64,000 bases of DNA from Chiloscyllium plagiosum (GCF_004010195.1 NC_057749.1:6717416-6781415); one strand, 5' to 3'; counted from the stretch's first letter, positions 3,060 through 57,680 are shown. Made by a program: numbers and translations. The notes: generated from the sequence alone by a model not told the origin.

Positions 3060-3890
3060 TAAACTCCTACTCTGGAAATAGAACCAGTCTGACTCAAGAT
3101 TGGGATACAGACAAACCCTAAGCTCACACCTTTAATGCAATGTCTAAGCTGAGGTGCCACTTCTTTTTGAAAAACTTTAAGTTATCTTGAGAATGTGATT
3201 TGAAAGAAGTTCTGGGATTTACATACTAATGAACTGAAACCTGCAACCCATTCTAAAAGATGAAAGACTTAACAGCAATTTAGGTTTGTTCAATATATCG
3301 GATCAGTTGCATGCACGACACTGTGATCTTTTGCTATAAATTCTGTGTCTTATGATCCTGCTCCATAGCTACCTGATGAAGGAGCAGTGGTCTGAATGCT
3401 AGTACTTCCAAACAAACCTGTTGGACTATAACCTGGTGTAGTGTGACACCGCACCAAGCAACCCCACTGCCCCGTGGCCAAACACTTCATCTCCCCTTCC
3501 TACTCTGCCGAAGACATGCAGGTCCTGGGCCTCCTCCATCGCCACTCCCTTACCACCCAATGCCTGGAGAAAAAATGCCTCATCTTCCACCTTGGGACCC
3601 TCCAACCCCATGGCATTAATGTGGATTTCACCAGTTTCCTCATTTCCCCTCCCCCCACCTTACCCTAGTTCCAACCCATTTATCTCTCCACGCCTGAGGC
3701 TCCCAGCCTCATTCCTGAATGAAGGGCTTTTGCCCAAAACGTCGATTCTCCTGCTCCTCGGATGCTGCCTGACCTGCTGTGCTTTTCCAGCACCACATTC
3801 TCGACTCTAATCTCCAGCATCTGCAGTCCTCACTTTTGCCTGACCTATAACTTTGTCTACCCCAGTTCAACACAGCACATCCACATTACT
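3060..3890 (+). mobile_element. PLE family B 3' repeat with nested family A fragment (about 3448-3840) encoding a GIY-YIG endonuclease C-terminus
   Basis: ORF 3474-3668 (AKHF.SPS...GLL...LIFHLGTLQPHGINVDF) resembles a Penelope EN tail. Degenerate hammerhead cores at 3373 and 3715. The family B tail resumes at about 3845, matching 25310-25350. Confidence 0.75.
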
Positions 3891-4415
3891 GCACTGAAAC
3901 AGACCCTTTGGTCCAACCAGTCCATGCTGAATATGTTGCCAAACTAAACTAGTCCCACCTGTCTGCTCCTGACCCATATCCCTCCAAACTTTTCCTATTC
4001 AAGTACCTATCCAAATGTCTTGTAAATGTTGTAATTGTACCCACATCTATCACTTCCTCAGGAAGGTCATTAAGGCTGTTACCTAATCCCAAGTGAGATA
4101 AGAATGCTAATAATTCCCTTGATAACAGATTTACTCAAAGAGTGAAGCATTATCTATGCAAACTTTCTGCCGCAATCCAGCACTCTTGCGTTATAAGTAT
4201 TTAATTAAGCAACACCCTTCAACTGACTGCCATCACAATATAATTAACATATACAGTACAACCTCAATTATCCGAACTTCGGATTATCCAAATGCGATCT
4301 CAAAGTCCCGTAAAAACGGCATTCGGTAACTCAGCATTCAATTTAACCGCATTATGAGGTACATTGCCGGATAACCGAGAAATATTTGCTAACTGGCACT
4401 CAAATTACCACTTGT

Positions 4416-4710
4416 TTAGATTAGATTCCCTCCAGTGTGAAAACAGGACCTTCAGCCCAACATGTCCACACGAACCCCCTGAAAAGTAACCCACCCAGAC
4501 CCATTTCCCTCTGACTAACACTATGGGCAATTTAGCATGGCCAATTCACCTGACCTGGACATCTTTGGATTGTGGGAGGAAACCAGAGCACCCAGAGGAA
4601 ACCCACGCAGAGAATGTGCAAACTCCACACAGACGCCAGAGGCTGGAATCGAAGCTGGGACCCTGGTGGTGTGAGGCAGCAGTGCTAACCACTGAACCAC
4701 CGTGCCACCC
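4416..4710 (-). mobile_element. HE1-type SINE
   Basis: Reverse complement of 1191-1512. Confidence 0.9.
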
Positions 4711-4776
4711 ATATTGGATTGACTAACAGATCAATTATCCGAACAAAATACTCCCCTCCCGTCTCATTTGGATAAT

Positions 4777-5533
4777 AAAGCAGGACTTATACACTCAATG
4801 GAAAGGTCCTGGGGAGTGTTGCTAAACAAATAGACCTTGGAGTGCAGGTTCGTAGCTCCTTGAAAGTAGAGTAACAGGTTGATAGGATAGTGAAGAAGGC
4901 ATATGCTATGCTTTCTTTATTGGTCAGCGTACTAAGTACAGGAGTTGAGAGGTCATGATGCGGCTGTACAGGACATTGGTTAGGCCACTATTGGAATATT
5001 GCGTGCAATTTTTGTCTCCTTACTATTGGAAGGATGTTGTAAAACTTGAAAGGGTTCAGAAAAGATTTACAATGATGTTGCCAGGGTTGGAGGATTTGAG
5101 CTACAGGGAGAGACTGAACAGGCTGTGGCTATTTTCCCTGGAGCGTCGGAGGCTGAGGGGTGACCTTATAGAGGTTTATAAAATCATGAGGGGCATGGAT
5201 AGGGTAAATAGAGCAAAGTCAAAAGGGTGGAGGAGTCCAGAACTAGAGGTTTAGAGTGAGAGGTGAAACATATAAAAGAGACCTAAGGGGCAGCTTTTTC
5301 ACGCAAAGGGTGTGGTGTGTATGGAATGAGCTGCCAGAGGAAGTGGTGGAGGCTCATATTATTGCAACATTTAAAAGGCATCTGGATGGGTAAATGAATG
5401 GGAAGGGATTGGAGGGATATGGGCAATGTCCTGGGTGGTAGGACTAGATTGGGTTGGGATATCTGGTCAGCATAGACGAGTTGGACCGAAGGGTCTGTTT
5501 CCGTGCTGTACGTCTCTATGACTCTATGACTCT
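4777..5533 (+). mobile_element. CR1/HER1-type LINE 3' fragment
   Basis: ORF 4955-5254 LYRTLVRPLLEYCVQF.SP...LERVQKRFT.MLPGL...LERRRLRGDLIEVYKI (CR1 ORF2 C-terminus); (ctatgact)n tail. Confidence 0.92.
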
Positions 5534-5809
5534 AATCGTGGTGCTATTGTAATTATCAACATAATTCTGTCATGTGCCATATCCACCTTATATCGTAAAT
5601 ACCCTTTGATCAGTCATAGATCTGTCCATTATCAGTTTGAATCGGCATTCCTTGTTCTATTATTATGGTGGACTGGAATGAATAAATTGGGAGAACATGT
5701 TTGCATTCATAGAAGGAACAACAACAAGACGGCATTGATTTGAAGTGAGCTGCAAAACACGCAGGGGTGGAGTGAGGAAATATCTTTCACTCAATGGGTA
5801 GAGGGGTCC

Positions 5810-6115
5810 AGTGGGCCCAGTGGTTAGCACTGCTGCCTCACATCGCCAGAGACCTGGGTTCAATCCCATCCTCGAGTGACTGTCTGTGTAGAGTTTGCAT
5901 GCTCTCCCCATGTCTGTGTGGGTTTCCTCCCCTAATCGAAAAATGGACAGGTTAAGTGGATTGACCAAGCTAAATTTTCCATGGCTTCCAGGAACGTGCA
6001 GGCGAGATGGGTTAACCATGGGAAAATGCAAGTCTATAGGGTAGGGGATGATCTTTGGAGGGTTGATTTGGATTTGATGGGCTGAAAGGCCTGCTTCCAC
6101 ACTGTAGCGATTCAA
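5810..6115 (+). mobile_element. HE1-type SINE within an old CR1 remnant
   Basis: Same head, V-domain and tail. Confidence 0.8.
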
Positions 6116-8419
6116 TGAATGAACTCTCCTTGAAACTGTGGTGGGAGGTAAGTCCAATTGAGACATTCAAGACAGCATTGGATGATTATTTGGATAGAAA
6201 TAATGTGTATGAGGAGAAAGCAGGAGGTTGGCGTTGGGTATTGATGCTCAATGAACTAGCCAGTGCAGGCACAATAGGCCGCATGGCCTCCTTCTGTGCT
6301 GTAACAACCCCGTGATTCAGTCCAGAGTAGATTTACCTTTATTTCGTGACTTTGCTTTTCTAACACTTCCATGTGTAGAAAGCCCCTCAATCACCGCATT
6401 TGAGAAACAGAAAGTCAAGCCTTCCACCAGATATCCCAGACAGCAGAACTCTCTGGTGTTTGGGAGCCTGGAGGCTGCAGTCCAGGGTTTAATTATAATC
6501 CCTCAACGTTAGGGCGACAGAAACGGCTGCTGGGTGAGTCCCGTTCTCGTCAGTGTGTGCATTTCAGTTTCAGAATCATTTGCTCTCACATACAGTGTTG
6601 CAGAATCTGTACGGTCACGGGATGCCAGTTCCTCTGACAGATCGGGAAAGGTGAGAGGGTTGGATGCCCCTGATTGACTGGTTCTTGCTATTTTCCTTTT
6701 GTTGACTGATCCCATTACAGGCACCCAATAGTGCCAACACGCAGTCACACATGTTCTTGCCTGGGTATATTTTGCCACCCACTTTGGAAACGAGCTTGAG
6801 TTGACCTCACTTGTTTTGTGTATTACAGTGGAATGGTATAATTTCTCCTGCTGCCTGTTTGACTTCATTGAAGAGAGTGGCAGCACACAGGTGTTAAATA
6901 GGCTGTCAGATCTCGTAAGCTTCAAGTCACATTGCTTCTGTTAACCTGATCCCTTAATGTACTTTACTCATTAGGAAGATGGAAGTTATTGGAGAGAGAC
7001 TCTTTTCATTAGAGACAGAAAGGTTGCGCAGAGATTTGACAGAGATGCTCAAAGTCAAATGGGGCCTGGCTTACATAGAATGGGGAGAAGCCATTCCCAT
7101 TGGTGGAACCATTGAGAGGGGACAGGCATTGGTAAAGAAACAATGGTGACACAAGGAAAAATTGTTTCTCCCAGTGAGTGGTTGGGATCGGAATATGCTG
7201 CTGGAGAGCATGGTGGAAGCATGTTCTATGGAGACATTCAAGAGAGAATTGAGATTATGATTGGAAAAGGAAGGACCTGGTGGGTTACAGGGAGAGGGAG
7301 AAGCAACGCCACTGGGTGCATTGACCATTTTGTGAGCTGCCACAGACATGATGGGCTGAATGACATCTGCTGTGTGGAGACTGACTCGACAGCTTTTTAC
7401 TCATGTGCCAGGGCTTCTCCTGTTATCGCAGTAGACTCATTAACAATCGTCAGGAAGAGATTTCAAATATAGTTTTTTGTCTCTTGATTCCTGAGGGCTA
7501 TCCATTTTGGGACACGTTTGGCTACTTTGCCTTTGAATTTGTGGGTTTGTTCGCTGACCCTGTGTGTTTCTCTGCAGAAAAACACATTGGCCCAACGAAT
7601 AAATCCACAACATCATCCACAACCCAAGCTACAGATCTTCTCAAGAACTCTACCTTGGCTATCTTTCTGAGACATCTCATTTCTGTTCATATTGTTCACT
7701 CTGTACAGTCTCTCACTAACTGTGGAGAAAGGGCTCACTTGGTACAATAACTAGCATATAGTTAACTGCAGCTTCTTCCCCACAACATTTCACATCTTCT
7801 CTGGAATCCCTAACTAGCATCTAAGAATTCTAGCCACATGCTTTATGTCCACAACCTTCCACATACCCATGGTGTCTCTTTACTCCTTTCACACCTTCCT
7901 AAGTATTCAGGTAATCAATGCACCCCATCATTCTCTCCAGCATGACGCATTTTACCTGCCCACGTTGTTTCTAACTGACCGACCTATCAGTATCATCTTG
8001 ATTAGTTTGGGTGCTTACTTGTTCTGCATGCTCGGCGTTGTGTTTTGAGGTTCTGTGCATCCCTGAATTATGTGTGGTGTGACAGAATGTAAGTTTTCAA
8101 GATTGTCCGTAATGTGGAAAGAAAGTAGATTTGGCTGGCCATGTCATCTACTGGAGTTCCATCCTGACAAAGAAAGGTTAAGCTGATTCATTTATTTCAG
8201 GGACTTGTGATTCTTAATAAAATTGAGACATCGTGACGCTGATGGGTTCATGATCTTTTTTTGTGCTAAAGACACCTGATGAACAGTTCTGATGAAGAGT
8301 CACTGGATTCAAAACACTAACTCTGTTTTCTCACCATAGATGCTGTCAGAGTATTATCAGCATTCTGTTTCTATTGCAATTTGATGAAACGCTTAGTAGG
8401 GACAACATAATCTCATGTA

Positions 8420-8625
8420 AAGAGTTGACTTGCTCAGTTGGCTTGCTGGAGATGCAGTGATGCCAACAATATGGGTTCAATTCCCATAGGTTACTATGAA
8501 GGATTCTCCTTCTCAACCTCTCCCCTTGCCTGAGGTGGGGTGACCCTCACGTTAAACCAACACCAACCATTTTTCTCTCTCTAATGAGAGAGCAGCTTTC
8601 CAGTCTGGTTGGACTACTTTAGCTT
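8420..8625 (+). mobile_element. Short tRNA-derived SINE family 4
   Basis: ttctcaacctctccccttgcctgaggtg..gtgaccctcacgttaaacca; inverse copy at about 24110-24330. Confidence 0.6.
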
Positions 8626-8799
8626 TTTAATCTCATAAACTAAACCTGAAAATGGAAAAATTCCACTGATGGAGAATTACTTTATCAGGCTCAACATCCT
8701 TACTGTATTTAATGTTTTCACTTTCTGGAATATCTTGTCACTGTTTCATAAGAATCTTACACCTTCCAGTGCACCAGATCTGAAATACCTGCTTAATTA

Positions 8800-9140
8800 G
8801 GGTGGTATAATGGCTCAGTAGTTAGCACTGCTGCCTCACAGCACTAGGGACCCGTGTTCAATTACAACCTCGGGCAACTGGGTCGGTGTGGAGTTTTGTA
8901 CATTCTCCCCGTGTCTGCATGGGTTTCCTCCCACAGTCCAAAGATGTGAAGGTTAGGTGGGTTGGCTGTGCTAAATTGCCCATAGTGTCTAGGGATGTGT
9001 AGGGTTAGCCATTGTAAACGTGGGGTTATAAGCACAGAATGGAGGTCTGAGTCTGGGTGAGATGCTCTTCATAGGGTCAGTGTGGAATTGATGGGCTGAA
9101 TGGCCTCTTTCTGATCTGTTTGGATTCAATGATTCTATGA
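8800..9140 (+). mobile_element. HE1-type SINE
   Basis: Same head, V-domain and tail. Confidence 0.85.
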
Positions 9141-10274
9141 ACATGTCTGACTTAAAAGTATAAATCTCGGCTGATGCTATAGTGGATTACGGCGGAACCT
9201 GTGGCTCCCTTCATTGATACATCAGCCGATGCTCTATCTGTTTATCCAGGTGTGCTTTTGCAATGGGGGAGCTGGTTGGGATTAGTATTCTGAAAGATAT
9301 TCTCAAATGGGACAAAGGGATTTCTTCAACTTGTAATTTTCTATGGATACGACACGCGGTATGTGCGATTCGTCTGTCAGTCAAACAAAATAATCTCCCT
9401 TTGCTGCTGAGTAATAGGCTTATTTTCAAATGTTACGCTGCCTTATGACAGTTCCAAAAATACAAATAATCATTTGAAGTCTTGCATGCTTCTGACAATC
9501 AGGAAATATCTTTGTAACACCTGATGTGAAGGAGACAGAGAAACCCCCGCCAGTCCCAGACAAAAGAAATTTTGAAACCATGCTGTGAGACATTAGTAAT
9601 GTTTGCACTAATACACTAGAATGAACTTCCAATAACTAGCCAATTATTATCAAAAATGACAGATTAGGCAAATTCACAAGTAGCGGAGTTCAAATTCACA
9701 CTTGCCTCTCCGTTACAATGTCCAAAGCCCAGATTCATATTGGAATTTGCTATGTAAACGTGTCACGCTGTACTTCTCATCTCCTGCCAGCAGAGGCATT
9801 GCAGCATCTGAGTTTTGTGATTTGCTTTATTCACTGGTAAAGCCAGCATTTATTGCCCACCCCTAAGGATAACTGAGAGACAACTCATTGCTATGGATCT
9901 GGAGTGGTGTTGCAGCTGTTCAGGGGTAAGGCCAGCAGGTTTCTTTACCCAGGAGGGTGTATTAGTGAACCAGAAGTGTCTTCGCAACTATTGATGGTGA
10001 CCATCACTATGGCTGCTTTCAATTCCAGATCTTTTTAATCAATATAAATTCCAGCAGTAGCCAATGGTGCAAACAGACTTAAGAGTATTAGCTCGTGGAT
10101 GGATTGAACATCCTAACCTATTTTCTCTGCTCCCCTGATTCTCCTAAATTTTGCTAAATACATAAGTGGTATCGAGTCTTAGCTTTATTTAAAATTTGGA
10201 AGGGCATGTATCATTGTAAATGGTAATTGTATTATTTCTATGCTCCCTGGTTAATTATTTCCCTCACTTTTTAA

Positions 10275-13221: not shown

Positions 13222-14219
13222 CTGGAAACAGCAAAAGATACATTTCAGAATGGTGAAATCTACTTATGGCCGAATTCTGAGCTCCCTGAGACATGGCCAG
13301 GGTTTCAGATACAAACGTCAATCACATCCTCAATGTAAAGACCTGACCTGTTTTATTTTGTGTACTTTTTTTTTGTCCTGCTCCTCATGACCCAACAACA
13401 GTGACCTTGTTGTCCACTTGGGCTTGTCCGTGTCTCTCATCACGTTGCTCACGCAACATCAGAGGGTACATCATTTCCTAATGCAGGCAGCTTTATGCTA
13501 CTTAAGATGGCATGTGCGAGTACAAAGAGGAACCTCTATTCCTATTGGATGTCTTGAGGGAAGCTGCTCAAGCAGAGTGCTGTCCATAATGGCTGGTTCC
13601 TTTAAGGCCCCGCTGCGCTCTGTTATTTCTTTACTTCTCTTCCGGAGATGGGGGGATCCCAGGCAAAGTTGGCATTTGCTGCCTGTCCCTAATTGTCCCT
13701 GAACTGAATGGCTTGCTCAACCTTTTCAGAGGGCAGTTAAGATTCAACAACATCACTGTGGGTCTGGTCACAAAGGGGACGGAGAGCAGATTTCCCTCCC
13801 TAAAAGGACATGCGTGAACCAGATGGGTTTTTAAGGCAATTACAATAAGCTATGGGGATATCACTGCACTAGTAATCCAAAGGGCCAGGCTAACAGTCCA
13901 ATGGAACATGGGTTCAAACCCAGCATGGCAGCTAAGTGAAATATGAATTTGATTAATAAACTCTGAATATAATTCTTGTCTCGCTGATAAAGATTCATTT
14001 GGTTCACTGATGCCTCTTCAAGGAAGGAATTCTATTTTCCCTCCCTGGTCTGGTCTGCATGTGACTCCAAACCCACAGTATTATGGTTGACTCCTAACTG
14101 CAGGACACTCAGCTCAATGGAATTAATAACAGCTCAGAAAAAAAAAGAAACATTCTAAATGGTCAGTACTACCGAAACTGGCTTTCAAATCCAGATTATT
14201 ATCGAATTGAAGTTCAACT

Positions 14220-14415
14220 CAGAAAACAAAAAGGAAATTGCTGGCAAAGCTCAGCAGGTCTGGCTGCACCTGTTCCGGGTCTGAGTAAGGGTGGCTCAAC
14301 TTGAAACGTTAACTCCAATTTCTCTCCACAGATGCTGCCAGACCTGCTGAGCTTTGCCAGGAACCTCTGGTTTTGTTTCTGATTTACAGCATCCAGAGTT
14401 CTTTTCGTTTTGATC
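14220..14415. mobile_element. Inverted-repeat mini-PLE (family C)
   Basis: gctggcaaagctcagcaggtctggc is the inverse of gccagacctgctgagctttgccag; contains gaaacgttaactc. Related remnants at about 8285, 15360-15490, 27553, 28950-29095 and 30097. Confidence 0.65.
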
Positions 14416-16044
14416 ATTTGGAATTTCAGTTTCATCAGTCGCTGTAGTTTGATTTGAACGCATGACCCTCAACCTGGCTTACTAGTCCGTTGACATCGTC
14501 ACCACATCACAGTCTCTCCATCGAGGGGCAGAAGACCATGTCCTCAGTTAGAGACTAATTGCTGTTTCTCAGGGGTGTTAAGCTGGGGGAAGAGTTACAT
14601 AAGTAAATAGATCCTGCAATGGCACATGACAGCACCATGCTGCAGAAACAGAACAGAAGGGAATGATTTTGTGCTCCCTAGATGAGAAGGTACTTACATA
14701 CCCCTGGCTCTTCTCCACAGAGGAGAATTATCAGGTGCAGAATAGGATAATTAGCTTTCTTTCTCTTTTTTTTCCACAATGCTTGTTCTTCAAAGTACAC
14801 TGCGCATTGTCAGATTCTCTAGTTACTCAGTGGCGATGTGTTGAATTTGATAATTGAACCAACGCAAGCGTGACATGCATATGTGAGATTTTGAGACACA
14901 ATGGAAGGACTGCTTTTATTTAACTACCAACTATTTTATCCTTGTTCCCTCATTGTGTTAGAGGAATTGTATTGAAAAGCAGCAAAACTCTGCGTTAATT
15001 GTGTAGAACCTTGGGTGGATCACTCTTGAGATTACGAGCACAATTCTAGCTTTCAATGCACAAAGAGGCTAACAGAAAGGTTTAAAAATAGAGTTGACAA
15101 GGATGAGAGTAGAACTGAGTATTCATATCTATCATGAGGGTTAAACAGCCTGGTGCATTTTTCTCTCTGAAATAGAAAAGTCTGAGGGTGATATATGTCT
15201 TTAAAATGATGGGAGAATTTGCCAGGGTCAATATAGAGATGCTTCCACTTGTCGGGAGGTGGGGATGGTTCAGAGCTGGGGCTCATAAACACAAATAAAT
15301 CCAATAAGGAACTCTGAAAGAACTTCCTTAACTGGTGGGTGGTTTTGTGGAACAGATTCAGGAAGTGCTGGAAAGACTTGGTGTGTCCGGCTTCATCTGT
15401 GAATGGTTTTTCACTTCACAGACGCTGCCAGATCTGCTGAATTTCTCCAACACTGTTTTTATTTCAGATTTCCAGCATCTGCAGTTATAGAGTCATAGAG
15501 TCATAGAGATGTACTTTGTTCTTATTTTGATGCTTTTTGTGGAATTTGTTATTGCAGGGAATAAGTGAGGCAAATAATACTGATGTTCTCAAGGAGAGGC
15601 TGGCTAACTCCACCAAGGAGAAAAGGATAGAATGCTGATCTGAAGTGGCAGAAGGCTGTGATGGAACAGAACAGATGGGCTGAATGGCCTGTTTCTGTGC
15701 TGTAAATGTTGTTTAATCATTACTTATACCCTGGTTATCTTTCATCCTTCTTAACATTGGGTGACTGTGAGGGGACATCTTCCAAACTTCTCCACGGGAT
15801 TTTGCCAGCACAGTTCTGTGTGGCCCAATGAAGGTATAGGACTGGTGTCTCTCTGAGTTGTTCACTTCCCTTCCCTTCCTTACACCTGAGATGCAGAGGA
15901 TATCTTCAAACCCTCTGCACGATTGACCTTTAGTAAAAACCCAACCATTGAAATGAATGGAGCATTGGGTTGGGCATTCAAGCTTTTTGAAAAGAGGTTT
16001 GCAAACCTAGCATGACCAATGTAAATACATTAGCTTCCTTTTTG

Positions 16045-16375
16045 GGGAGGCATGGTAGCTCAGTGGTCAGCACTGCTGCCTCACAGTGCCAGGGACCCAG
16101 GAACGATTCCCACCTTGGGCAACTGGCTGTGTGGAGTTTGCACATTCTCCCCGTGTCTGTGTGGGTTTCTTCCGGGTGCTCTGGTTTCCTCCCACAGTCC
16201 AAAGATGTGCAGGTCAGGTGAATTGGACATGCTGAATTGTCCCATAGAATTAGGTGCATTAGTCAGGGGTAAGTGTAGGGTGGGGGAGTGGGTCTGGGTG
16301 GGTTACTGTTTGGAGGGTAGGTGTGGACCTGTTGAGCCGAAGGGCCTGTTCCATACTGTGAGAAATCAAATTTAA
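16045..16375 (+). mobile_element. HE1-type SINE (additional tail fragment at about 16470-16580)
   Basis: Same head, V-domain and tail. Confidence 0.9.
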
Positions 16376-17029
16376 CTTATAAGCACTGGGGCACAACTGG
16401 GTGTGATATAGAGAAGAAGAAGGAATTATTAATCAGTTGACTATTCTGAATCAAATTGTCCTGTGGAACAATATAGAGTAATAGGGTAGGGGAATGATCT
16501 GGGCGGGTTACTCTTTGGAGGGTCGGTGTGGACTTGATTGGCCAAATGGCCTACTTCCGCACTATAGGTATTCTATAATTGGGGGTTCAATGAATAGTAC
16601 AGCATCCTATTTCATGAGAAGTAAATGTACAGCAGATGTAAAAAAGAACAATGAATAAAGTGTGATAGTGGGATCAATTCAGGAAGACTCCAGATTCAAA
16701 TGAGGAGATGGTGGATTGAGGAATCAGGTTTGATTTCCATGTCTATGTTGCACTCCTTTAAATCAGATACCACAATAGGCTCCTGACTTCGCAAAGCTAT
16801 TCTCAATTTATTAGAGTCATTGAGGTCTAAAGCACCGAAAGAGGCCCTATCCAGTCTGTACCAGTCAAAAAGACCTACCTAATTATTCTAATCCCATTTT
16901 CCAGCAAATCACCTATACCGCACATGCCCAGGTATATATTTAAATTCAAACTTCCCATCTACCACGGTAGGCCAGGGATGTTCCTGCTATGCCATTGCTT
17001 CCCTCTGAGTTAGCAGAAAGCAGTCACTT

Positions 17030-17365
17030 GATGGTACAGAACTTCAATGTTGTTGACAAGCAAGAGATAAGTTGCCAAATGTTTTCATCTTTCTACTCAT
17101 CAGGACAAATGCAAGAATCTCAGATTTTAAGCCACCACAATAGTTGGAAGGCAAGTAGCTATCCGGAGCAGCCAAATTAACAGTAAGGTCCTCCAAACAG
17201 CAATTATTTCATAGCTTGGCCAATTGGAGTCAACTTGCCATCCATTCAGAATCCTCTTCTCCTGTAGTATAAACTGTTGTGATCATTTGAAATTTGGCAC
17301 TCTTGTATTGGTCCTGATGAGTACAAGGAGTTAAGCTTCAGCAACATGTCCCTCATTTCAACAGC
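17030..17365. mobile_element. PLE family D inverted terminal-repeat remnant
   Basis: actcatcaggacaaatgcaagaat (about 17095) is the inverse of tcttgtattggtcctgatgagt (about 17301-17322). Confidence 0.55.
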
Positions 17366-18625: not shown

Positions 18626-20199
18626 TCAATTTATGTCAGACCTATAGAGAATATCAGAATGCCATTAGATTTGCCAAAAGGTTTTACTACTCGGTTTTGT
18701 TAGTAACCGCTTGATGGAAACAGTCCAAAGTTGATTCTGTCATCTTTCTCCAGTCATTATTTGGATTCAGATACCTCATGAAATGAGTGTGCTGGTCTTG
18801 ATTAACAAATATGGTCAGGAATTAGATGGGCTGAATGGTCACTTTCCAAATTGCAACAATTCTGTAATTCTGACTTATCAGGCTTGTTCAGAGTCATCTT
18901 CAGCAGATTCATTTTTCTATGTCTATTGACACCCTCGAGGCTACAATTAATCTGAAATATTATGGCTACAAGAGCAGGTCAGGGGCCGGGTATTCTGTGC
19001 TGACTCATTCACTTCCAGAATCTTTACCATCCTTTTTAAAAAATCTTTAATGGGATGCAGGTATCACTAGCAAGCTCAGCATTTATTGACCATCCCTAAT
19101 TGCCCTTGAACTGAGTGGCTTGCTTGAACATTTCAGATATTTTCAAAAGAGTCAACCACATTGCTCTGGGTTTGGCATCATATGTAGACGAGATCAGAAT
19201 GGCTGGTTACCTTCTCCTAAGGGCACAGTGAACTAAAAGCATTATTACATCAACCAATGATGCTTTCATGGTCACCATAACTGAAGCTAGCTTTTCACTC
19301 CAGTGGTTGCTGGGATTTAAAACCATGACCACAGTGCATTAACGCGCCCAGTGATATGACCACTATACCACTGTCTCTCCAAGGCACAGGAAAGGCACAG
19401 GAAAGGCACATTCTCTTCACTTGACTGGATGGCTACACATCCAACAACATTCAAGAAGCTCACCAGCATCTAAAACTTAACTGCTTTAATTGGCACTCGA
19501 TCCACTTCCTTAAATATTCACCCTTGACCGCTGATATACCAGCAGCAGTAACGTGCATTCTGGAAAGAATTCACTGCAGGAATTTCTCTGAAAGCTCCTT
19601 TAACTGGACCTTCTAAACTCAAGTTCAAGTAAAAGAACGAAGGCAGCAGGTACATGGGAATACCAAGGCTTCCTGACCCGGAACTGTATCACTATTCCTG
19701 TTGTCATGAGTTCAAAATCTTGGAACTAGATCCAAGCATTACTATTCAACTACTTGTGTACTTCTTGTTGTGGGTATGTTCGTCAAACATACCCACAGCA
19801 ACTGCAACCAGCATCTGAGCTACAAATCTTTGCACAAATCTTGAACTTAGGTACTGTAATATTCCTTTACTTACATCTTGATACCGCTTTAGTGTGTACT
19901 GGACCTCGCTCATCACGTGTTCACTTTTGACTTAGTCTCTTTTCTCTTGTTGATGTCAGCATCAGGCAATAGCTAACCTCATCATGACATGCATGGGTCT
20001 CACTAAACCAGCGACTCTGGTTTGGTTTTCTGACTAGACAAAGGAACTCGACTTCACTGCATGATCAAATTTTACAAGATACATGACTGATAGAAAGAAA
20101 TGGTTAGGGAGTTAGATGGGACAAACCAGAGAATTGAAGACAAGAAATAGCAAGGAATAGCGAAAGATTTAGAGAATTAAGGTTGGAGAGATAGATCGG

Positions 20200-22582: not shown

Positions 22583-22585
22583 TAC

Positions 22586-36787: not shown

Positions 36788-36992
36788 GTGTTGAAACTTT
36801 ATTGCTGGAACAGCACAGCAGGTCAGGCAGCATCCAGGGAACAGGAGATTCGACGTTTCGGGCACAGGCCCTTCTTCAGGAATGCCCGAAACGTCGAATC
36901 TCCTGTTCCCTGGATGCTGCCTGACCTGCTGTGCTGTTCCAGCAATAAAGTTTCAACTTTGATCTCCAGCATCTGCAGACCTCACTTTCTCC
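36788..36992. mobile_element. Inverted-repeat mini-PLE (family A), young copy
   Basis: Perfect 75-bp arms at 36790-36864 and 36883-36957; 14-bp TSD tgtataagtgtgca at 36774-36787 and 36993-37006. Confidence 0.85.
36848..36883 (-). ncRNA. Minimal type I hammerhead ribozyme motif (PLE family A), intact
   Basis: Minus strand reads AUUC-CUGAAGA-A-GGGC(CUGU)GCCC-GAAAC-GUC^GAAU: 4-bp stem I, 4-bp stem II, palindromic ACGU stem III, GUC cleavage triplet. Confidence 0.75.
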
Positions 36993-40314: not shown

Positions 40315-40562
40315 AGAAAAGAAACAAAGAACTGCAGATGCTGAAAATTAGAAACAAATCAGAAATTGCTGGAAAAACGTCAGCAGGTCTGGCAACATCT
40401 ATGGAGAGTTAAAGCAGAGTTAGCATTCCAGGTCCAGTGACCCTTCTTCAGAACAGACCCTCCTTCCAAAGAGGGGTCACTGGACCTAAAACGTTAACTC
40501 TGCTTTTTCTCCACAGATGCTGCTAGACCTGCTGTGTATCTCTAGCCATTTCTGTTTTGATG
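40315..40562. mobile_element. Inverted-repeat mini-PLE (family C)
   Basis: Arms ...gtccagtgaccct and ggggtcactggacc...; TSD cttgaaattaagg at 40302-40314 and 40563-40575. Confidence 0.75.
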
Positions 40563-41072
40563 CTTGAAATTAAGGGCTCAGGTATCTAGGATTAAACGGT
40601 CTTCTCTCCCTGGTTAGACCAAATATCTAAGGCCCCAGCCTTTATCCCTGTGGGTAGGAATTGCAGACACAGCTCACTGCAGTACAGTTCAAGGGAAAAT
40701 GTGGTTCTCATTGTTCCAGTTTGTCTTGTTCACTCATGACCCAGGTAGTCATTGTCGAGAGAACAAAAGAATACAACCCACTAACATCTTAAAGCCCCAG
40801 ATCTTGTCCTGTCAGAAATCATACGTTAAATTTTCATTGAAACATTGGGCACTTGGTAACTGTGACACTAAGCTCTTCAGGGGATGAAGTAATCATTATC
40901 CTGAGACAGAATGAACAAGTGAACATCTTTCTGCGCTGTTCCGTCTGCATTTTGAATTAGTTCATAATGAGAAAGCAGCTGATTCTCCATGTGGTAAATG
41001 ACAGGCTCCAGGAATCTCTGCAAGGTGATTATCCCCTCCCTCGTGTCAGTTCCTATAACCTCCACCACAAGT

Positions 41073-41375
41073 GGGACGGCATGGTAGCTCAGTGGTGAGC
41101 ACTGCTGTCTCACAGCGCCAGGGACCCGGCTTCGATTCCTGCATCGGGCAACTGTCTGTGTGGAGTTTGCACGTTCTGTCTGTATCTGCATTGCTCTGGC
41201 TTCCTCCTACAGTCCAAAGGATGTGCGGGTTAGGTGAATTGGCCATGCTAAATTGCTCATAGTGTTAGGTGCATTAGTCAGGGGTAAATCTAGGGGGTCG
41301 GTTGCTAAACAGACGATTGGTGTGGACTTGTTGAGCCGAGGGGCCTGTTTCCATAGTGTAGGGAATCTAATCTAG
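41073..41375 (+). mobile_element. HE1-type SINE
   Basis: Same head, V-domain and tail. Confidence 0.85.
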
Positions 41376-42164
41376 TCAAGTCTTTCTGGCTTCTTTCCAA
41401 TATCGATCAATGAAGTGACCAGCATTGATTCATTAGAGCTCAGACTTGCTGCCGCAAAGCGAAGACAGTCGTTGCTGAGCTCTGGAAGCTCCTAAGATCA
41501 GTCAGGGTCAATACTGCCAGTTGTCAATCTGGCATGGCCCAGGTGGATAACAAATCCATGGGCAAATCCACTGAGGTCAGAAGCAAGCTGGTCTTTGATG
41601 CTGCTAATTAAAAGCTTTGTCAATGCTCCCCAGTAAGGCTTATGCATGAAGATTAATGACTTGTGGCTGTTAAGACATTACAGGAAGACAGTTGAATTGT
41701 CAACAACCACCCTGCGTAGGATCACTTCCATCTTCACCACCTCATTCAGAAATTAGTTGGACAATTAAGGGACAAGTAGGGTGACTCATCAGTTCCACGA
41801 TAATACCTTCCAGATCATGAGATGGAGCAATGAAAGCTCTCTACTCAATTTCACTTCACTCGAGTTGTTCATGTTATCTGGTGTTCTGATTTAGGATTTA
41901 CGAGCTAGCAACTTCCAAAAGCAGCCATTTTCTAATCTCCAACTCCAGAGCAAATGAGGATATTTCAAGGATTAACTTTCCTTGCCCTTTGTTTCCGTGC
42001 ATTGAGGAATGAAGGAAAATCAGCCAGGCAGGGAAGCACATCCGGCAAGGGACTCTTATCAACTTAAAGCTCAGAGATCATCAATGTACTGAAGTATCTG
42101 CTTAAATGGACTCCTTTATCAGTCTGGGTTAGGTTTTAATGGTTAACAATCCTTCTTTTAATTC

Positions 42165-42939: not shown

Positions 42940-43660
42940 GCTGAAGAACAACAGTTTGTTGAAACCTTTTGCCCAGTACTCATCAGGACAATCCACAAAA
43001 ATATTAAAGCAAAGGGGAAGAAACATAAATATTGCACGAGAGGTCAGTGCTGGTTGCTTGGCAAGTGAACACTGATTGGTAAAGGCACTGTCATGGAGGA
43101 TGCACCAAATAATGATGACTAGCAATTAACTTTCAAGCTTTGTTTAAATTTTTAGTCAGGTGGGTTGATTCTAATTGATCATGGCAATGTTCTGAGTAAT
43201 GAACTAAAGAATGGCTATCACCTAGTTTGTTCAGGTGAAACGAGTGCAGCGCATGCATATGTTCCTTCTGTCTGCAATGAATAGAGCCCTGTGTTTTAAT
43301 ATACCTGGCTTCCTGAATGCATAAATGTATCAGATTGTGAGTCTGATTGATTATTCTAAATTGTTTGTTGGTATAATCCTTTGCACACTCAGAATAATTT
43401 TGCAAATGTTGTCCAATTGCAATATTACTTCCAATGCTGGACATTATGCTCTCAGTTTGTGCAAGTGAGGACTGTTTGGGTGTAATCAGTACAACGCTTG
43501 TTGCAATAGCAGACGGGATACACTGTTTGATACAATCCACCAATCTTTGGGACTTCTGGCTTACTAGCCTAGCACTGCACCGGCACTGAAATTCATATAC
43601 CACTTTACTCATTTGTGGGAGGTGCAGAATGTCTTTTTGGCTTGACAGCAACATTCTATA
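42940..43660 (-). mobile_element. PLE family D fragment with GIY-YIG endonuclease remnant and 3' repeat
   Basis: ORF 43133-43654 (SKVVYEFQCRCSARLVSQKSQRL...IGQHL...EARYIKTQGSIHCRQKE); degenerate core CUGAUGA at 42986-42980. Confidence 0.75.
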
Positions 43661-43814
43661 AGTAGTGGTCCTGCCAAATGGTTGAGCAAATTACTATAGC
43701 CAATTCTGAGCATTTTTTTCACTTTTGTGATGAAGGACTCGTTCACAATTGTGAAGACCTTACAGGACTTTTATATCAATAGAAATGCGGTGCTCATGTA
43801 CTTCTTTGATATTA

Positions 43815-44310
43815 TTTGGAGGAGCTGGTGTTGGACTGGGGTAGACAAAGTTAAAAATCACACAATACCAGGTTATAGCCTGAAAGGTTCATTTGGAAGC
43901 ACTAGCTTTCAGAGTGCTGCTTCTTCATCAGGTGGTTGTGGAGCAGAACCAGAAGACACAGAAATCACAGCAAAAGGTTACAGTCTCATACAGCTGAAAC
44001 AATATATTGAACAAACCTAGATTGTTAGGTCTTTCATCTTTTAGAATGGGTTTGCTGGTTTTGGTTCTTTAATATGTAAATCCTAGAACTTTTAAGTTAC
44101 ATTCTCAAGATAACTTAAGGTTTTATAACGACAGGTGACTTCTCAGCTCAGACAATGCCTTAAATGTGTGAGGTTAGAGTCTGTCCGTATCCTGAACTTG
44201 AGTCAGACTGGTTCTATTTTCAAAGTGGAATTTACAGAATACTACATGGATTGACTGCCTGCAGATTTTGCACTTTTTGAGCAAAATAGAATGTATCTGC
44301 AAATAGAATT
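43815..44310 (-). mobile_element. PLE family B repeat
   Basis: Reverse-complement homologous to 3070-3450 and 3845-3890; contains a hammerhead core. Confidence 0.75.
43900..43934 (-). ncRNA. Minimal hammerhead motif (PLE family B), stem II eroded
   Basis: CAC-CUGAUGA-A-GAAGC(AGC)ACUCU-GAAAG-CUA^GUG; stem I is CAC/GUG. Confidence 0.5.
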
Positions 44311-44749: not shown

Positions 44750-45600
44750 CACAGAGTCATACAGTACGGAAACAGACTCTGTGGTCTGAACCAGCTGACC
44801 AGACATCTTAAATTAATCTAGTCTCATGTGTCAGTATTTGGCCTATATCCCTCTAAACCCTTCCTATTCATATAGCCATCCAGATACCTTTTAAATGCTA
44901 TAATTGTACCAGCTCCACCACTTCCTCTGGCAACTCATTCCATATATACAACACCTTCTGCATGAAACAATTGCCCTTGAGATCCCTTTTAAATCCTTCT
45001 CCTCTCATCTTAATCTTATGCCCTCTTGTTTTGGACTCCCCTACCCTGGGGAAACCCTATGAATAGGTTCACTCTATCCATGCTCATTATGGTTTTGTAA
45101 ACGTCTGTAAGCTCATCCCTCAGCCTCTGACACTCCTGAGAAAATAGCCTTAGCCTATTCAGCCTCTCCCTATAGCTCAAACCCTCCAACCCTGGCAACA
45201 TCTTTGTAAACCTTTTCTGAACTCTTGCAAGTTTAGCAACATCTTTGCCATAGCGGAGAGACCAGAATTGAACACAGTATTCCAAAAATAGCCTAACCAA
45301 TATCTTGTACAGCTGCAAATAATATCCCAACTGCTTTACTCAATTCACTGACCAATAACGGCAAGCACACCAAATACCTTCTTCAATACTCTGTCTATGT
45401 GCGACTCCACCCTGTCTACTTGTGAACTAAGAACCTGCACCCCAAGGTTTCTTTGTTCAGCAACACTCCCCGAGAGCCTACCATTAAGTGTTTGAGTCCT
45501 GCGCTGATTTGTCTTAACAAAATGCAACACCTCATATTTATCTAAATTAAACTCCATTTGCCACACCTCGGACCACTGGCCCATCTGATCAAGGTCTGTC
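44750..45600 (-). mobile_element. CR1/HER1-type LINE fragment
   Basis: ORFs 45016-45330 and 45345-45602 (WQMEFNLDKYEVLHF; LEYCVQFWS). Confidence 0.9.
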
Positions 45601-46069
45601 ACTGGGAAGAAAGTCTGGAATGAGATAAGGCAATATCACACCTAAGAGTGAAGATAAAATGTCAATTATAGGAGGAATACTGGAACCATCCAACTGATAA
45701 GAGATAGCAAAGATCCTTATCGTCTGATTTCATTAGAAATCAGGATAAGACAACACCCACAGGTACTGAGAGAAAAAAACCTTTAACAGAAGATTTCATT
45801 TGGAATGAAAGAATAAGGGAAGGATAAAAGAAATAACCATACAACAGTATAAAACTTCTTAAATAAATTTACTGAATAAAAGTTCAACTTTGTAAAGGAA
45901 TCTACAGGGAGCAACTCTAACCTGACTCACCCTAAACGAGTTATTAAGGAACAATGTTAAATGATATAACATTACGTGAAAGTGGAAGGAATCTATACAG
46001 AGGGTTTATATCCACATATGAAAAGCAGGAGGAATTCAAATAATATAAATCAAATAATAAACCACCTTT

Positions 46070-46395
46070 TGGGCAGTTTGGTGGTTCAGTGGTTAGCACT
46101 GCTGCCTCACAGCATCAGGCACCCAGGTTCGATTCCACCTTCAGGTGACTGTGTGGAGTTTGCACATTCTCCCCGTGTCTGCGTGGGTTTCCCTCCGCGT
46201 GCTCCGGTTTCCTCCCACAGTCCAAATATGTGCAGGTTAGGTGGATTGGCCATGCTAAGTTGCCCATAGTATTCAGTGTGTAGGTTTAGTGATTAGCCAT
46301 GGAAAACGCAGGGGTATTGGGTTGGGTCTGGGTGGGATGTTCTCCGGAGGGTTGATGGGCTAAATGGCCTACTTCCACACTACAGGGATCCTATG
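46070..46395 (+). mobile_element. HE1-type SINE
   Basis: Same head, V-domain and tail. Confidence 0.9.
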
Positions 46396-47788: not shown

Positions 47789-47974
47789 TTCCGTGATGTT
47801 TTGGTTCAGAAATTGGACAGGGCATTTCTCTACTGCAAACCACAAACTTGACACTCACGGGTTAATTTACTCTGAATGGGTAAGGCAACTCAAAAGCTTT
47901 GAATGTGAAGTTAGCTTTTTCATGCTGCCATGATGCAGTAACAACATGAATGGAATGTACTATTACCACGATAT

Positions 47975-48630
47975 CAAGCCAAAAGGGCATTCTGCTGATC
48001 ACACAAATGAGTAATGTGGTATATGAATTTCAGTGTTGATGTGATGCCAGATAGGTAGGCTGAATGCCCCAAGGATTGGTACATCATGTCAAACAGCATG
48101 TCCTCCTGCTGTCCACAGTGGGCAAAGTGTTGACTGTGGCCCAGAAGTTCACACTTGCAAAACTTCCACCATAGTGTGTAATATTCGAAAACATTTTGTG
48201 ATTGGACAACATCTGCTTGAGATTGCAAAGTACAATGCTGACAACCAATTTAGGGTTGCCAATTGGGCTCGCAGTATAGTATATCTGCATGTACTGGATA
48301 ATACAGACATTAATACTCTTCTTTGCAGACATAAAGTCCGTGGGGACCCATCAACTCAACAAAATAGATGACAGCTATGTTCTCTTAATTCTTGGGACAA
48401 TACTTTGATCAATCAGTGACAACTACCTGGTTTAAATTTACACAAACGTTGGTAGTTAACTGTCATTCGTCACCAACTGCTCTATGCGCACACTTCTATC
48501 AGAGATCATGTGATAACTAAGTAGCATTTTCTCTCACATTAATGTTGGTTCTCCCTTTAAATTTTTATTCTTGGAAATTGTCATATGAGTGCAATGCGAA
48601 AAGTTTCAACAAAATGCTTTTTTTTCAGTA
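47975..48630 (+). mobile_element. PLE family D fragment (decayed GIY-YIG region)
   Basis: atgagtaatgtggtatatgaatttcagtg (MSNVVYEFQC) and IGQHLL...FRVANWARS; homologous to 43133-43654 in the opposite orientation. Confidence 0.65.
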
Positions 48631-51167: not shown

Positions 51168-51725
51168 AGGTTGTGTAGGACATTGGTGAGGCCTCCTCTG
51201 GGAATACTGTGTCCAGTTCTGATCGCCCAGTTATAGGAAGGATACTATTAAGATGGAGAGGGTTCAGAAAAGATTTACCATGATGTTGCCAGGTATGGAA
51301 GGTTTGAGTTATCAAGAAAGGATGGATAGGTTGGGATGTTTTTAACCAGAGTGTAGGGAGTTGAGAGATGACATTATAGAAGTTTATAAATTAATGAGGA
51401 GTACAGAGTTAATGGTAGCTGTCGTTTCCATAGGATGGGGGATTTCAAGACTAGGGGGCACATTTTTAAGGTGAGAGAAGAAAGCTTTAAAAAAGGCATG
51501 CAGGGCAATGTTTTGACACAGAGTGTGATCTGTGCGTGGAATGAACTTCCAGAGGAAGTGGTGAATGTGGGTACAATTACAATGTTTAAAAGACATTTGG
51601 ATAAGTACATGAATAGAAATGTTTTGGAGGAATATGGGCCAGGAGCAGGCAGGTGGGACTAATTTAGTTTGGGATTATGTTCAGCATTGGACCGAAGGGT
51701 CTATTTCCGTGCTCTATAACTCGAT
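51168..51725 (+). mobile_element. CR1/HER1-type LINE 3' fragment
   Basis: Homologous to 4960-5520. Confidence 0.88.
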
Positions 51726-54638: not shown

Positions 54639-54788
54639 CTGGGTACGGGTGGATGCCATTGGCATAGATAGTGTCAGATGCTGGTTGACCATTAGTCTGT
54701 GGTGGCATGGCACTAAACCCATTGACTCCAATGGGCGTAGCTATGCTGGGTACAGCTGCTGCATTGATGCCAGGAGGGGTACTGGTGC
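54639..54788 (-). CDS. CELF6: CELF exon, divergent domain: (G)[49 protein letters not shown]
   Basis: Acceptor ttttcttctatag, donor CAG|gtgagt; 150 nt, phase 1-1. Translated by hand; not in the ORF track. Confidence 0.92.
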
Positions 54789-55062
54789 CTATAGAAGAAA
54801 ACGAACAACAATCTGTGAAGAAAATACATTCCTGTAAGCATAAGCCTGAAGCGAAATGAGGCTACTTATTCATACTGCCTGCCATTTATCTTCCTACGAG
54901 GCTGCTGGCTTCTTTTACAGATAGAGCTTCAAGAAACAATATGACATTACTTCCCTATGTGCAATACATTAACACCAATTAATGGAATCGCGATGGCACT
55001 GAGCTAAGGCCTCTTGCGGCATAGTGGTACTGTCCATACCTCTGGGCCAAAAGAACTTTTTT

Positions 55063-55403
55063 ACAGAATTCCTATAGTGTAGAAATAGGCCCTTCCGCCC
55101 AGCAAGTCCACACCAACCCTCCGAAGAGTATCCCAAACAGACCCACTCCCTTACCCTATTACTTTACATTTCCCCCTGATTAATGCACCTAACCTACACA
55201 TCCCTGAACACTACGGGCAATTTAGTATGGCCAATCCACCTAACCTGCACATCTTTGGACTGTGGGAGGAAATCGGAGCACCCAGAGGGAACCCATGCAG
55301 ACACGGGGAGAATGTGCAAACTCCACACAGTCGCCCGAGGTTGGAATCGAACCTGGTTCCCTGCATTGTGAGGCAGCAGTGCTGTGAGCCACCGTGCCGC
55401 CCC
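55063..55403 (-). mobile_element. HE1-type SINE
   Basis: Full-length reverse copy about 275 bp from the exon acceptor at 54789. Confidence 0.9.
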
Positions 55404-55614
55404 ACAGTGCACCAAGAGGCCTTGGTTCAGTTCCTATCTCCTCCACATCTGATCAGGTTGATTAAATATCTAGTATCATTGAGGTGGGGTAAAGACAAGC
55501 AAAGAAGATATCTGGAGCAATGTTTTCAAATGAACATAACAATATTGAAGTGAAGCACAGGGTCAGACATGTATCAATTTAATTATATATTTAGTACAAC
55601 ACCCTAAAGGGTTG

Positions 55615-57680
55615 CTAGCTGTGGTAGAAACATAGTAAGGTCTTTATAAGTACATTTAGGACATCAATACAAACAATATTTATAGAGGTGGACAAATGTG
55701 AATTAATTAGGGAGATCCAGTGTGGATTTCTTAATGGAAAGTCACGTTTATTTGATCTGTTAGTGTCTTGAAGAAGTATCAGGATAATTCTGTTTATAAT
55801 GTCTTCTTGAACTTCCAGAATGCATTTGACGCATTGCCAGACAAGACCTGCAAGCAAAGTTGGAGCCCGTGGGATAAAATGACAGGAGCAAGGTGGATAT
55901 AAAAAGTCAAAGAGTGTGGTGCTGGAAAAGCACAGCCGATCAGGCAGCATCCGAGGAGCAGGAGAGTTGACATTTCAGGCATGAGCCCTTTATCAGGAAG
56001 GGCTTCCTGATGAAGGACCTATGCCCAAAATGTCGGTTCTCCTGCTCTTCGGATGCTGCCTGACCGGCTGTGCTTTACCAGAACCATACTCTTCGACTCT
56101 AATCTCCAGTATCTGCAGTCCAAGCTTTCTCCTGGATATAAAAAGTGGCTAACAAAAAACATCAGCTAAGGGTAAAAGTATGGGGAGCTTGGAGATGGTT
56201 CGCAATAGGGTTGATTGTGTGTCAGTCTTGAGACCCTTGCTTTTCCTGATATATATTAATTATCTGGAGCTTTGGTCTACAGGGCACAATTTCCAAACTG
56301 GAAGGTGATATAAACCGTAAAAGTATTTCTCAACTGTGAGAAGGATTGTGCAGAAATGCATAAGGACATAGAAAAGTTGGTGGAGTGGGCAGATAGACAG
56401 CAGACCAACTGAAAAAGTGCAAGGTGCTGCATTTGGTAGGGAGAACATGGAGAGAAAATATAACGTAAAGGACAACATTTTAAAGTGTGTGTAGGAGCAG
56501 AGAGACCTGGATGTATACATGCATGAGTCTTTGAGTGGGAGGACAGTTTGAGAGAGCTGTTAATAAGGCATATGCTGTTGCAGGCTTCAGTGATAGGGGC
56601 ATAGAAGAGCAAGAAGATTACACTGAACTTGTATAAATCACAAATGAGGACTCAGCTTGTGTACTGTGTATAGTTCTGAAAGCCTTTCTTTATGAAGAGC
56701 ATGGACATGTAGGGGAGATTACAGAAAAGGATAATGTGAATGGTACTAGGGATGAAAGTTTCAGAGAAGACAGAGGAAATCTGATTCAACTGTTCAAAGC
56801 CATGAGGTGTCTATACAGAGTAAATACATATTCCCATTTGTGGAAGGATTGAAAATGAGAGGACACAGATTTAAATCATTAGGATGGAAAACAAAAGTGT
56901 TGTGAGAAAACACATTTTCACATTGCAAGTGGTAAGGGTCTGGAATGCACTGCCTGGGAATGTGAGGGAGGAATGTTTAATTGAAGCATTCAAAAGCATT
57001 AGCTGGCTAGTTGAATTGGATGAATGTGCAGGGTTACATTTGGAGAGCTGATACAAACACAATGGGCCCAATGGTCTCCTGCACTGTAACAATTTTGTGA
57101 TTCTGTGAAAGCAGGTGCATGGTTGTTAAATTTGCGATGACAAATAGGTAGAAATTACTTGTCAAGAGAAGTGAGAGAGTCTGCAATGGGATATAGATAG
57201 ATTAAATGAGTAATTAAAAATTTGGCACATGGAGCATAATGTGGCAAAATATGAACTTCTTTACCTTAGCAGAAAGAATAGAAAGCTAGTGTATTATCTG
57301 AATGGAGAGTGCTTGCAGAACTTTAGATACAGAGGGATCTCGGCAATAGATGATAAAAACAGGGTGGTCTTACTTTAGCTGCACAGACCTTTAGTGAGAC
57401 CACATCAGGAGCATTATGTGCAGCTTTGGTCTCCTTTTGCAAACAAGAGATGATGTTACAAGCAGTATAATGAATGCTCATTTGTTTTATTCATGGGATG
57501 GTGTATTTATCTTATTGAAATATAGAAGCTTCTGAGGGGAATTGATGGAGTTGATACCAAGAATGTTTATCCCCTTTTGGGGAAGGATAGAACTAGGATA
57601 CACAGTTTAAGAATAAGAGGGGTCCTTTTCAAGGTGGAGATTAGAATAATTTTTCCCTCTCTCAGAGGGCTATCAGTATG
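55615..57680 (+). mobile_element. Old decayed CR1 RT-region fragments (two consecutive copies)
   Basis: Remnants resembling Q.GF..GKS.L, DFQ.AFD and FLIYINDL motifs, heavily frameshifted. Confidence 0.65.
55908..56132. mobile_element. Inverted-repeat mini-PLE (family A) inserted in a CR1 fragment
   Basis: Arms centred on about 55997; 14-bp TSD tggatataaaaagt at 55894-55907 and 56133-56146. Confidence 0.8.

Follow-up and report, generated by a model that had tools for sequence, protein, structure and literature searches.

Mostly broken minimal hammerhead ribozymes in and beside a CELF-family gene of Chiloscyllium plagiosum, very probably fossil ends of Penelope-like retroelements

We analysed a 64,000-nt stretch of Chiloscyllium plagiosum DNA (NC_057749.1), hereafter the window, on which all positions are counted. 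It holds a CELF-family gene on the minus strand (13095–61400), with coding exons near 61390, 60020, 34200, 29810 and 13150 and a stop codon at about 13095; its RRM exon matches RRM3 of CELF1/2 (E 7e-25), and a Pfam search with 10 window translations returned the CELF RRM as the sole relevant match, the weak matches being to unrelated families. Inserted in and beside this gene are short repeats of four families (A–D) that carry a minimal hammerhead ribozyme motif. The motifs are real but mostly broken, and the repeats are very probably the fossil pseudo-long terminal repeat (pLTR) ends of at least four lineages of Penelope-like retroelements (PLEs). An earlier note on this DNA had placed them throughout the CELF locus, which describes most of them; those at 3373, 3715 and 8289 lie 3' of the stop codon, outside the introns.

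Family profile searches, with anchors placed by hand after inspection, detected 25 arms in 18 insertions (A 10, B 4, C 7, D 4), an arm being counted when the 3' half of the motif, or more, is present. The shared layout, with the core elements CUGANGA, GAAA and UH in type I order, is present at every coordinate the note gave. Both core halves occur in 20 of the 25 arms, every core base is kept in 6 of these 20 (A at 28520, 32623 and 36879; B at 25244 and 43931; D at 17103), and 3 of the 20 (36879, 25244, 43931) combine the intact core with an intact palindrome and at least 3 pairs in stems I and II. None of the six complete C arms is core-intact, the full C core being seen solely by combining decayed arms. 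The very high density claimed earlier, about one per 4 kb, is right if decayed copies are counted and too high for competent ribozymes: core-intact motifs occur about once per 11 kb (6 in 64 kb), and between intact arms of the same family and strand the distance is 4.3 kb for A and 18.7 kb for B.

With the score threshold raised from 4 to 8 in unit steps, a structure-descriptor scan of the window kept 9, 7, 5, 2 and 1 sites; 10 order-3 Markov resamplings gave 2–7 at threshold 4, 0–3 at 5 and 0 from 6 upwards. The low-scoring sites in the resamplings, and an Rfam search with no hammerhead among its 13 window matches at E ≤ 5, are what might suggest chance matches to a short, degenerate consensus. 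We give that explanation almost no credence: it is refuted by the resamplings, with no site at a score of at least 6 against five observed, by the covariation and by the core bases restored in other genomic copies (both below). Three weak descriptor matches on the minus strand (52730, 54594 and 62881, scores 4–5.5) fall in no family, were missed by a covariance model and are probably chance. That model, built from 13 A–C window arms and five outside motifs and thus circular for its own rows, found no further family in the window, and the family A and family B patterns each had 0 matches in viral contigs.

The motifs share one architecture with covarying stems. Our alignment has 18 rows, namely 13 window arms of families A–C and five distinct motifs from unrelated metagenome contigs; seven complete arms (3715, 30095, 40466 and the four D arms) and five half arms are omitted. 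Paired cells make up 89.7% of the alignment against 75.5% when shuffled, 20 cells have two-sided changes, and slid-register controls reach 17–56% paired. None of 500 shuffles reached the observed level of covariation, a count that is not a p-value because rows are related to one another and, for the outside ones, part of stem II was set by the search pattern. The claim that pairing partners change together between families is thereby borne out for A–C and the outside motifs. Across the 18 rows loop III is absent, positions 15.1–16.1 are palindromic, the central pair is CG in 6, GC in 5, UG in 4, UA in 1 and other in 2, and the 10.1–11.1 pair is GC in 10 and GU in 8. An extra base stands between positions 9 and 10.1 in A, B and C and is missing from D; stem II has 4–5 bp, and stem I just 2–3 bp in A–C. 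The 4-bp stem I proposed earlier for family A (AUUC/GAAU) fits the insertion at 36790–36994 only, most A arms having GAUU or GACU, which give 2 bp and a mismatch. Folding five core-intact arms without constraints, as monomers and as dimers, gave no complete double hammerhead; the model ignores core geometry, which makes this result uninformative.

The outside motifs came from a metagenome pattern search that found 6 loci (5 distinct) in other organisms. Where the pattern left a choice, all six are palindromic and pair at the stem II position, and no endonuclease was found within 300 nt of these loci. Relatives of family B thus exist in another organism: one of these loci (L002:301-370) matches it both in hammerhead layout and, at 78% over 55 nt, along part of the tail downstream.

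Family A supplies the best-preserved motif, on the minus arm (36848–36883) of a palindromic insertion at 36790–36994 that is flanked by a perfect target duplication of 12–14 bp; it is the single textbook motif of the window. The two arms within 36790–36957, which lies in a TG-rich microsatellite, are identical even at variants missing from other A copies, so this insertion is either very young or has been homogenised between its arms. Transcribed in CELF pre-mRNA, it could yield about 75 bp of perfect double-stranded RNA, a possible substrate for A-to-I editing. The palindromic insertion at 28394–28610 has a core-intact plus arm (28516–28551), a minus arm with the 3' half only and a target duplication of about 12 bp with one mismatch. 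A single minus-strand arm at 32523–32627, whose hammerhead (32592–32627) is core-intact with a 2-bp stem I, is flanked by a 13-bp duplication that starts at stem I, where the arm begins. In the insertion at 55913–56133, which has a duplication of 13–14 bp, each arm begins at stem I and carries a broken hammerhead (G8 in one, G12 in the other). In the palindrome at 35412–36011 the plus arm (35881–35916) lacks G12 and the minus arm keeps the 3' half only; a different interspersed repeat of about 330 nt splits its centre.

One family B copy is a plus-strand pLTR at 3049–3446 with about 330 nt of sequence upstream of the ribozyme. Its hammerhead (3370–3404, predicted cut after 3401) has lost A15.1, and the position of its poly(A) signal (3411–3416) is mutated in this copy, AATAAA standing there in 97% of contig depth. 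The tail is broken by a family A insertion and resumes at 3841–3886. That nested A copy (3447–3842), of which contigs show the empty joined form at 3439–3848, holds a C-terminal endonuclease-like remnant (3456–3660, plus strand) upstream of a plus-strand hammerhead (3711–3747) broken by a 1-nt core insertion and the loss of G12. Elsewhere, the palindromic B insertion at 25165–25352 has a core-intact minus arm (25213–25247) that begins at stem I, a plus arm with the 3' half only and a target duplication of about 8 bp read by eye. The B copy at 43811–44234 (minus strand) lies outside any palindrome and has a core-intact hammerhead (43900–43934) with stem II mismatches.

All family C hammerheads are broken. 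The plus-strand ones at 8286–8321 (G12, U16.1), 27550–27585 (C3, A15.1) and 30092–30127 (three core changes) are joined by the plus arm (14278–14313, without G8) of a palindromic insertion at 14214–14414 and by both arms (40419–40454, minus; 40463–40498, plus) of another at 40326–40560, which has a 13-bp target duplication; a minus-strand arm at 29035–29055 retains the 3' half only. Further inverted C stubs lie at 15348–15486, entirely without a hammerhead, and at 28955–29099. Family D has a head-to-head pair, whose left arm (17072–17108, minus strand) is core-intact with a 5-bp stem I, a broken palindrome and a weak stem II and whose right arm (17309–17345, plus strand) has three core changes. 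Its other hammerheads are at 42956–42991 (minus strand, G12 broken), about 140 nt downstream of an endonuclease frame, and at 48577–48612 (plus strand, U4 and G5 broken), the latter missing from the earlier list.

Coding remnants link the ribozymes to PLEs most clearly in family D. The frame at 43133–43690 has 556 relatives at E ≤ 0.001; of nine scanned, four match GIY-YIG (below the curated cut-off) and four match RVT_1 (three above it). These relatives also match a second, plus-strand remnant with stops and a frameshift (47959–48335) and an inverted piece of reverse transcriptase (RT) on the plus strand (43649–43813; tblastn with P0075, E 2e-5) that is joined to the first remnant. By its sequence relatives, the remnant at 43238–43681 (minus strand) is shown to be a Penelope-type GIY-YIG endonuclease, and both D endonuclease remnants stop shortly upstream of a D hammerhead. 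The remnant beside family A is probably an endonuclease of the same type. Its single relative, the unnamed protein P0151 (57–58% identical, E 2e-10), bears what by eye is a VVY..YIG motif, with weak support from profile comparison (hhalign E 4.6e-4, probability 33%); Pfam gave no GIY-YIG match for the A remnant, which also did not match the D endonuclease profile. Searches for longer proteins with the D and A remnants returned nothing, and Atlas gave no usable match. The earlier placing of GIY-YIG remnants next to A and D is thus secure for D and probable for A.

The form of the insertions points the same way. Copies are single arms of 90–220 nt or head-to-head palindromes with tails and target duplications. 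Many are palindromes with a longer tail on one arm, the tails and duplications being seen in A, B and C and the inversion also in D. Of eight insertions tested by script, five have clear duplications of 12–14 bp (one with a mismatch), and the others comprise the one read by eye and two with none. Inverted arm, one-sided tail and target duplication match the marks described for PLE insertions (PMC3846280, PMC8557442), and the repeats can thus be read as such insertions. The identification in the earlier note, minimal type I hammerheads of PLE ends with a loop-less palindromic helix III, is supported.

Once inserted, the copies on the whole decay like ordinary junk DNA. In 16 arms of families A–C, core positions have changed at 19 of 192 sites (9.9%) and tail positions at 71 of 713 (10.0%; p=1.0), a tail rate that is inflated by subfamily differences. 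Loss is concentrated at G12, gone in 7 of 25 arms compared with 18 of 220 other core sites (p=0.007), because the conserved C11.1 before it makes a CpG; over the 25 arms the C11.1–G12 dinucleotide is CG in 6, TG in 12, CA in 5, TA in 1 and other in 1. An excess of TG over CA was considered as a sign of selection and is not significant (12 to 5, p=0.14). Three of the six core-intact arms lie in inverted repeats that, on the CELF-sense strand, are predicted to fold into long hairpins over the motif (–166 kcal/mol at 28520, –172.5 at 36879 and –91 at 25244).

Other genomic copies were sampled by aligning contigs of two DNA runs (X1 and X9) and reads of an RNA run (X21) to positions 3040–3900 at 80% likeness, which recovered about 209,000 and 179,000 contigs from the two DNA runs, as depth and not as copy number. 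A further RNA run (X22) gave 0 reads there, which says nothing about expression. Among the 40 of 323 base differences listed, those in the broken cores are restored elsewhere: A stands at 3397 in 98% of X1 contig depth, and G at 3736 (G12) in 70% of X1 and 61% of X9 contig depth and in 78% of RNA reads. The genome-wide majority among these copies restores the A and B cores.

The points where the short copies begin and end suggest how they arose. In five clean A arms and one B arm the 5' boundary falls where stem I begins, 3–7 nt upstream of C3; a neighbouring repeat disturbs the start of another short A arm (35885, the sixth), and the six C arms, for which there is no long reference, share no sequence further upstream. 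Genome-wide, the consensus of loose contig ends stops at the start of stem I (950, 2256 and 2218 contigs), RNA depth at the ribozyme climbs from 48–142 to 910 and then 2644, and strand-switch joints occur at 3719. No loose ends were seen at the cut site among the 18 of 2743 listed. The 3' ends of A copies fall at two sites about 40 nt apart, 3797 and about 3841. Cleaved RNA would give copies without the 5' half of the ribozyme, and since short A copies start at stem I, their templates were uncut. The simplest reading is that short copies are run-off cDNAs, begun internally and extended to the 5' end of uncut RNA, in keeping with what the Anolis element PAc does in vitro (PMC11167929). We also considered a splice acceptor as the cause of the boundary (AG at –9 in A and –5 in B), which has a precedent in D. 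virilis (PMC4209133), and ranked it below a transcription start or RT stop because neither the loose ends nor the window copies share an upstream exon.

We propose that the hammerhead would be selected only in active source elements, where two motif copies on a tandem transcript, or two RNAs aided by an element protein, may pair through stem I and the palindrome and cut. Downstream of the ribozyme, the element RT would have two alternative internal start sites on the RNA, from which it would copy as far as the RNA 5' end or a strong stop where stem I begins; this would leave very many short copies, each with the complete, uncut ribozyme. Both DNA strands may prime, with two cDNAs joining at microhomologies to give the palindromes. 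Most inserted copies would be inert, having no near partner, being sequestered in hairpins or having lost G12 by CpG decay.

An alternative is that the short copies form a non-autonomous family of their own, akin to retrozymes or SINEs, whose replication proceeds from a short or circular RNA and not as a by-product of full-length PLE RNA. They are far more numerous than the long copies and have in common a sharply defined 5' boundary, at which lies what we take to be an initiator-like motif; published retrozymes include some that stem from the ends of PLEs, one cartilaginous fish being among the hosts (10.64898/2026.07.22.740005). We nevertheless hold this alternative to be unlikely: the window has no tandem hammerhead units, its arms being dispersed or head-to-head, the palindrome centres vary among insertions, and the boundaries are not at the cut site, where replication by cleavage and circularisation would put them.

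The pairing rules also bear on what the ribozymes may do. In a double hammerhead, going by the published scheme (PMC4209133), helix III and stem I would both form between two copies, and family-specific palindromes might then be a code that admits only same-family active dimers. A/B and B/C palindromes pair at 2 of 4 positions, that of D has 6 nt against 4, stem I cross-pairs at 0–2 of 3 positions in 8 of 12 cross-family cases, and all 6 outside motifs (5 distinct) are true palindromes although the pattern permitted others. The palindromes are not family-specific as had been claimed, ACGU being common to A and C (B has AGCU), nor do they alone restrict dimer partners, since by pair counting one A/C hybrid core stays fully paired (the 5' part of C with the 3' part of A pairs 3 of 3 in stem I, with wobbles). 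Any such code would therefore be partial: helix III shuts B out from A and C, and its length shuts out D, yet the A/C hybrid pairs. A self-complementary 4-mer excludes others as a by-product, so that incompatibility is no sign of selection, and the same two palindromes occur in unrelated organisms. We regard a selected code as quite improbable and its appearance as probably a by-product.

Several observations weigh against reading the repeats as PLE ends that were copied from uncut RNA and then decayed neutrally. The endonuclease call for family A comes from one unnamed protein and its weak profile match (probability 33%). No coding remnant was found beside the B or C arms of the window, copies that are too short, and it is by architecture alone that these two families would be assigned to PLEs. 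The window holds no intact PLE with two pLTRs (pLTR-ORF-pLTR), as expected of truncated copies. None of the four D arms starts at stem I, all of them extending further upstream, and the core insertion in the A reference breaks alignments at 3719, which biases the loose-end counts there. Finally, core changes number 4 of 96 on CELF-sense arms and 21 of 144 on antisense arms, a gap that neutral decay does not predict.

This strand bias is a lead only. Core-intact arms are 5 of 8 CELF-sense and 1 of 12 antisense (Fisher p=0.018), one-sided within-family shuffles give p=0.026 for changes and p=0.075 for intact counts, and the sense tails are no younger (12% versus 9% changed); the test was post hoc on 20 arms. 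The RNA run adds a second pattern. Of 7603 reads, 520 carry poly(A) after 3428 and 670 after 3431 (together 1190), sites that lie 12–15 nt past the AATAAA of most B copies and 27–30 nt past the predicted cut; no such loose ends are among those listed for the DNA runs. Family B thus carries a used poly(A) signal, and shared indels suggest that a few expressed loci supply many of the poly(A) reads. RNA ends do not pile up at either predicted cut site, for which one fragmented poly(A) run is a weak test.

Such observations might be taken to mean that copies have been domesticated, with sense intronic hammerheads tuning CELF pre-mRNA processing and B poly(A) ends cut in trans 27–30 nt upstream of the tail. 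The intact sense arms with tails that are not younger, the poly(A)-tailed reads and the conserved intronic hammerheads of amniotes (PMC6155905) speak for it. Besides the post hoc nature of the strand test and the lack of RNA ends at the cut, the five intact sense arms are all flawed (two buried in hairpins, one with a broken palindrome, one with a 2-bp stem I and one with a mismatched stem II), same-family intact arms on one strand are kilobases apart, as given above, and minimal hammerheads cleave poorly even as dimers (PMC4209133). The same pattern would follow from CpG decay biased by strand, the TG:CA ratio being 8:1 in sense and 4:4 in antisense arms. We therefore think domestication very unlikely. 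Fainter still is the prospect of a partner-gated cutting network, in which a gene-sense subset of hundreds of thousands of stubs would be kept intact; it is just as doubtful that a transcript in such a network would lose its tail only on pairing in trans with a compatible family member, at sites in introns and upstream of B poly(A). Decay of inert copies, on the whole neutral, remains our preferred reading.

Other repeats also populate the window. An abundant SINE-like repeat of about 330 nt occurs in both orientations (1177–1510, 5788–6128, 8786–9142, 16031–16588, 20175–20682, 41060–41382, 46057–46394 and 57961–58186, plus inverted copies). A SINE-like copy contains 140 N at 30710–30849, an assembly gap or masked stretch. 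The 3' fragments of a LINE-like repeat, with decayed frames, lie at 4959–5519, 22934–23371, 44909–45317, 51201–51687, 58864–59304 and 62587–62859.

The role of PLE hammerheads is regarded as unsettled (PMC8557442, PMC11167929). Should a start at stem I prove to be the rule for short copies across the genome, uncut RNA was the template of the inserted cDNAs; this would lend in vivo support to the dispensability of cleavage seen in vitro and would place either the 5' end of the RNA or a stop of the RT. Next to the B cut site, the poly(A) signal in use offers a simple place to test the cutting of host RNA. Our literature search, which left most subscription papers outside it, found neither work on shark PLE hammerheads nor an account of a poly(A) signal in a pLTR.

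In its insertions, the window resembles PLEs described by Arkhipova (2013, PMC3846280) and Craig (2021, PMC8557442), with an inverted, 5'-truncated head-to-head copy, target duplications and a 30–40 bp tail at one end only. It differs in that an insertion is often two pLTR stubs only (about 200 nt), with duplications of 12–14 bp against 8–10 bp in rotifers. The Anolis Poseidon element PAc studied in vitro (Frangieh 2024, PMC11167929) is similar in that two internal RT starts explain the tail and that RNA-seq reads ending at the cut are absent; there, both strands are cut and extended and insertion needs no ribozyme cleavage. That work did not map genomic 5' ends; their clustering at stem I, as seen here, adds to it. 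Non-LTR retrozymes (Li 2026, 10.64898/2026.07.22.740005) are likewise non-coding, hammerhead-bearing derivatives of PLE ends, but their definition requires tandem units in which two or more hammerheads are intact, and the window has none of these. The amniote intronic hammerheads (RECK and others, PMC6155905) are also retroelement-derived, of type I and on the intron sense strand; they are conserved single loci, whereas the window arms are multicopy, decaying and without stable monomer folds.

The closest known system is the minimal hammerhead described in pLTRs of metazoan PLEs by Cervera and De la Peña (2014, PMC4209133). Both share the type I core, the absence of loop III, a palindrome (at 15.2–16.2 in that paper), the G10.1–C11.1 pair and, with A, B and C, the extra base between 9 and 10.1, as well as several covarying families per genome, mostly as single truncated copies, and pairs on opposite strands. 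The features that had seemed striking here, multiple families, compensatory changes, palindromes and opposite-strand arms, are therefore already known from that work, whose Results and Discussion name no cartilaginous fish. The window departs from it in its stems (4–5 bp in stem II and, in A–C, 2–3 bp in stem I) and in family D, with no extra base and a 6-nt palindrome. Coelacanth and Xenopus have 4,000–9,000 minimal hammerheads per genome (PMC4209133), and the core-intact density of the window (6 in 64 kb) extrapolates well above that range. The window thus enlarges a class known since 2014 with further, unusually densely packed examples.

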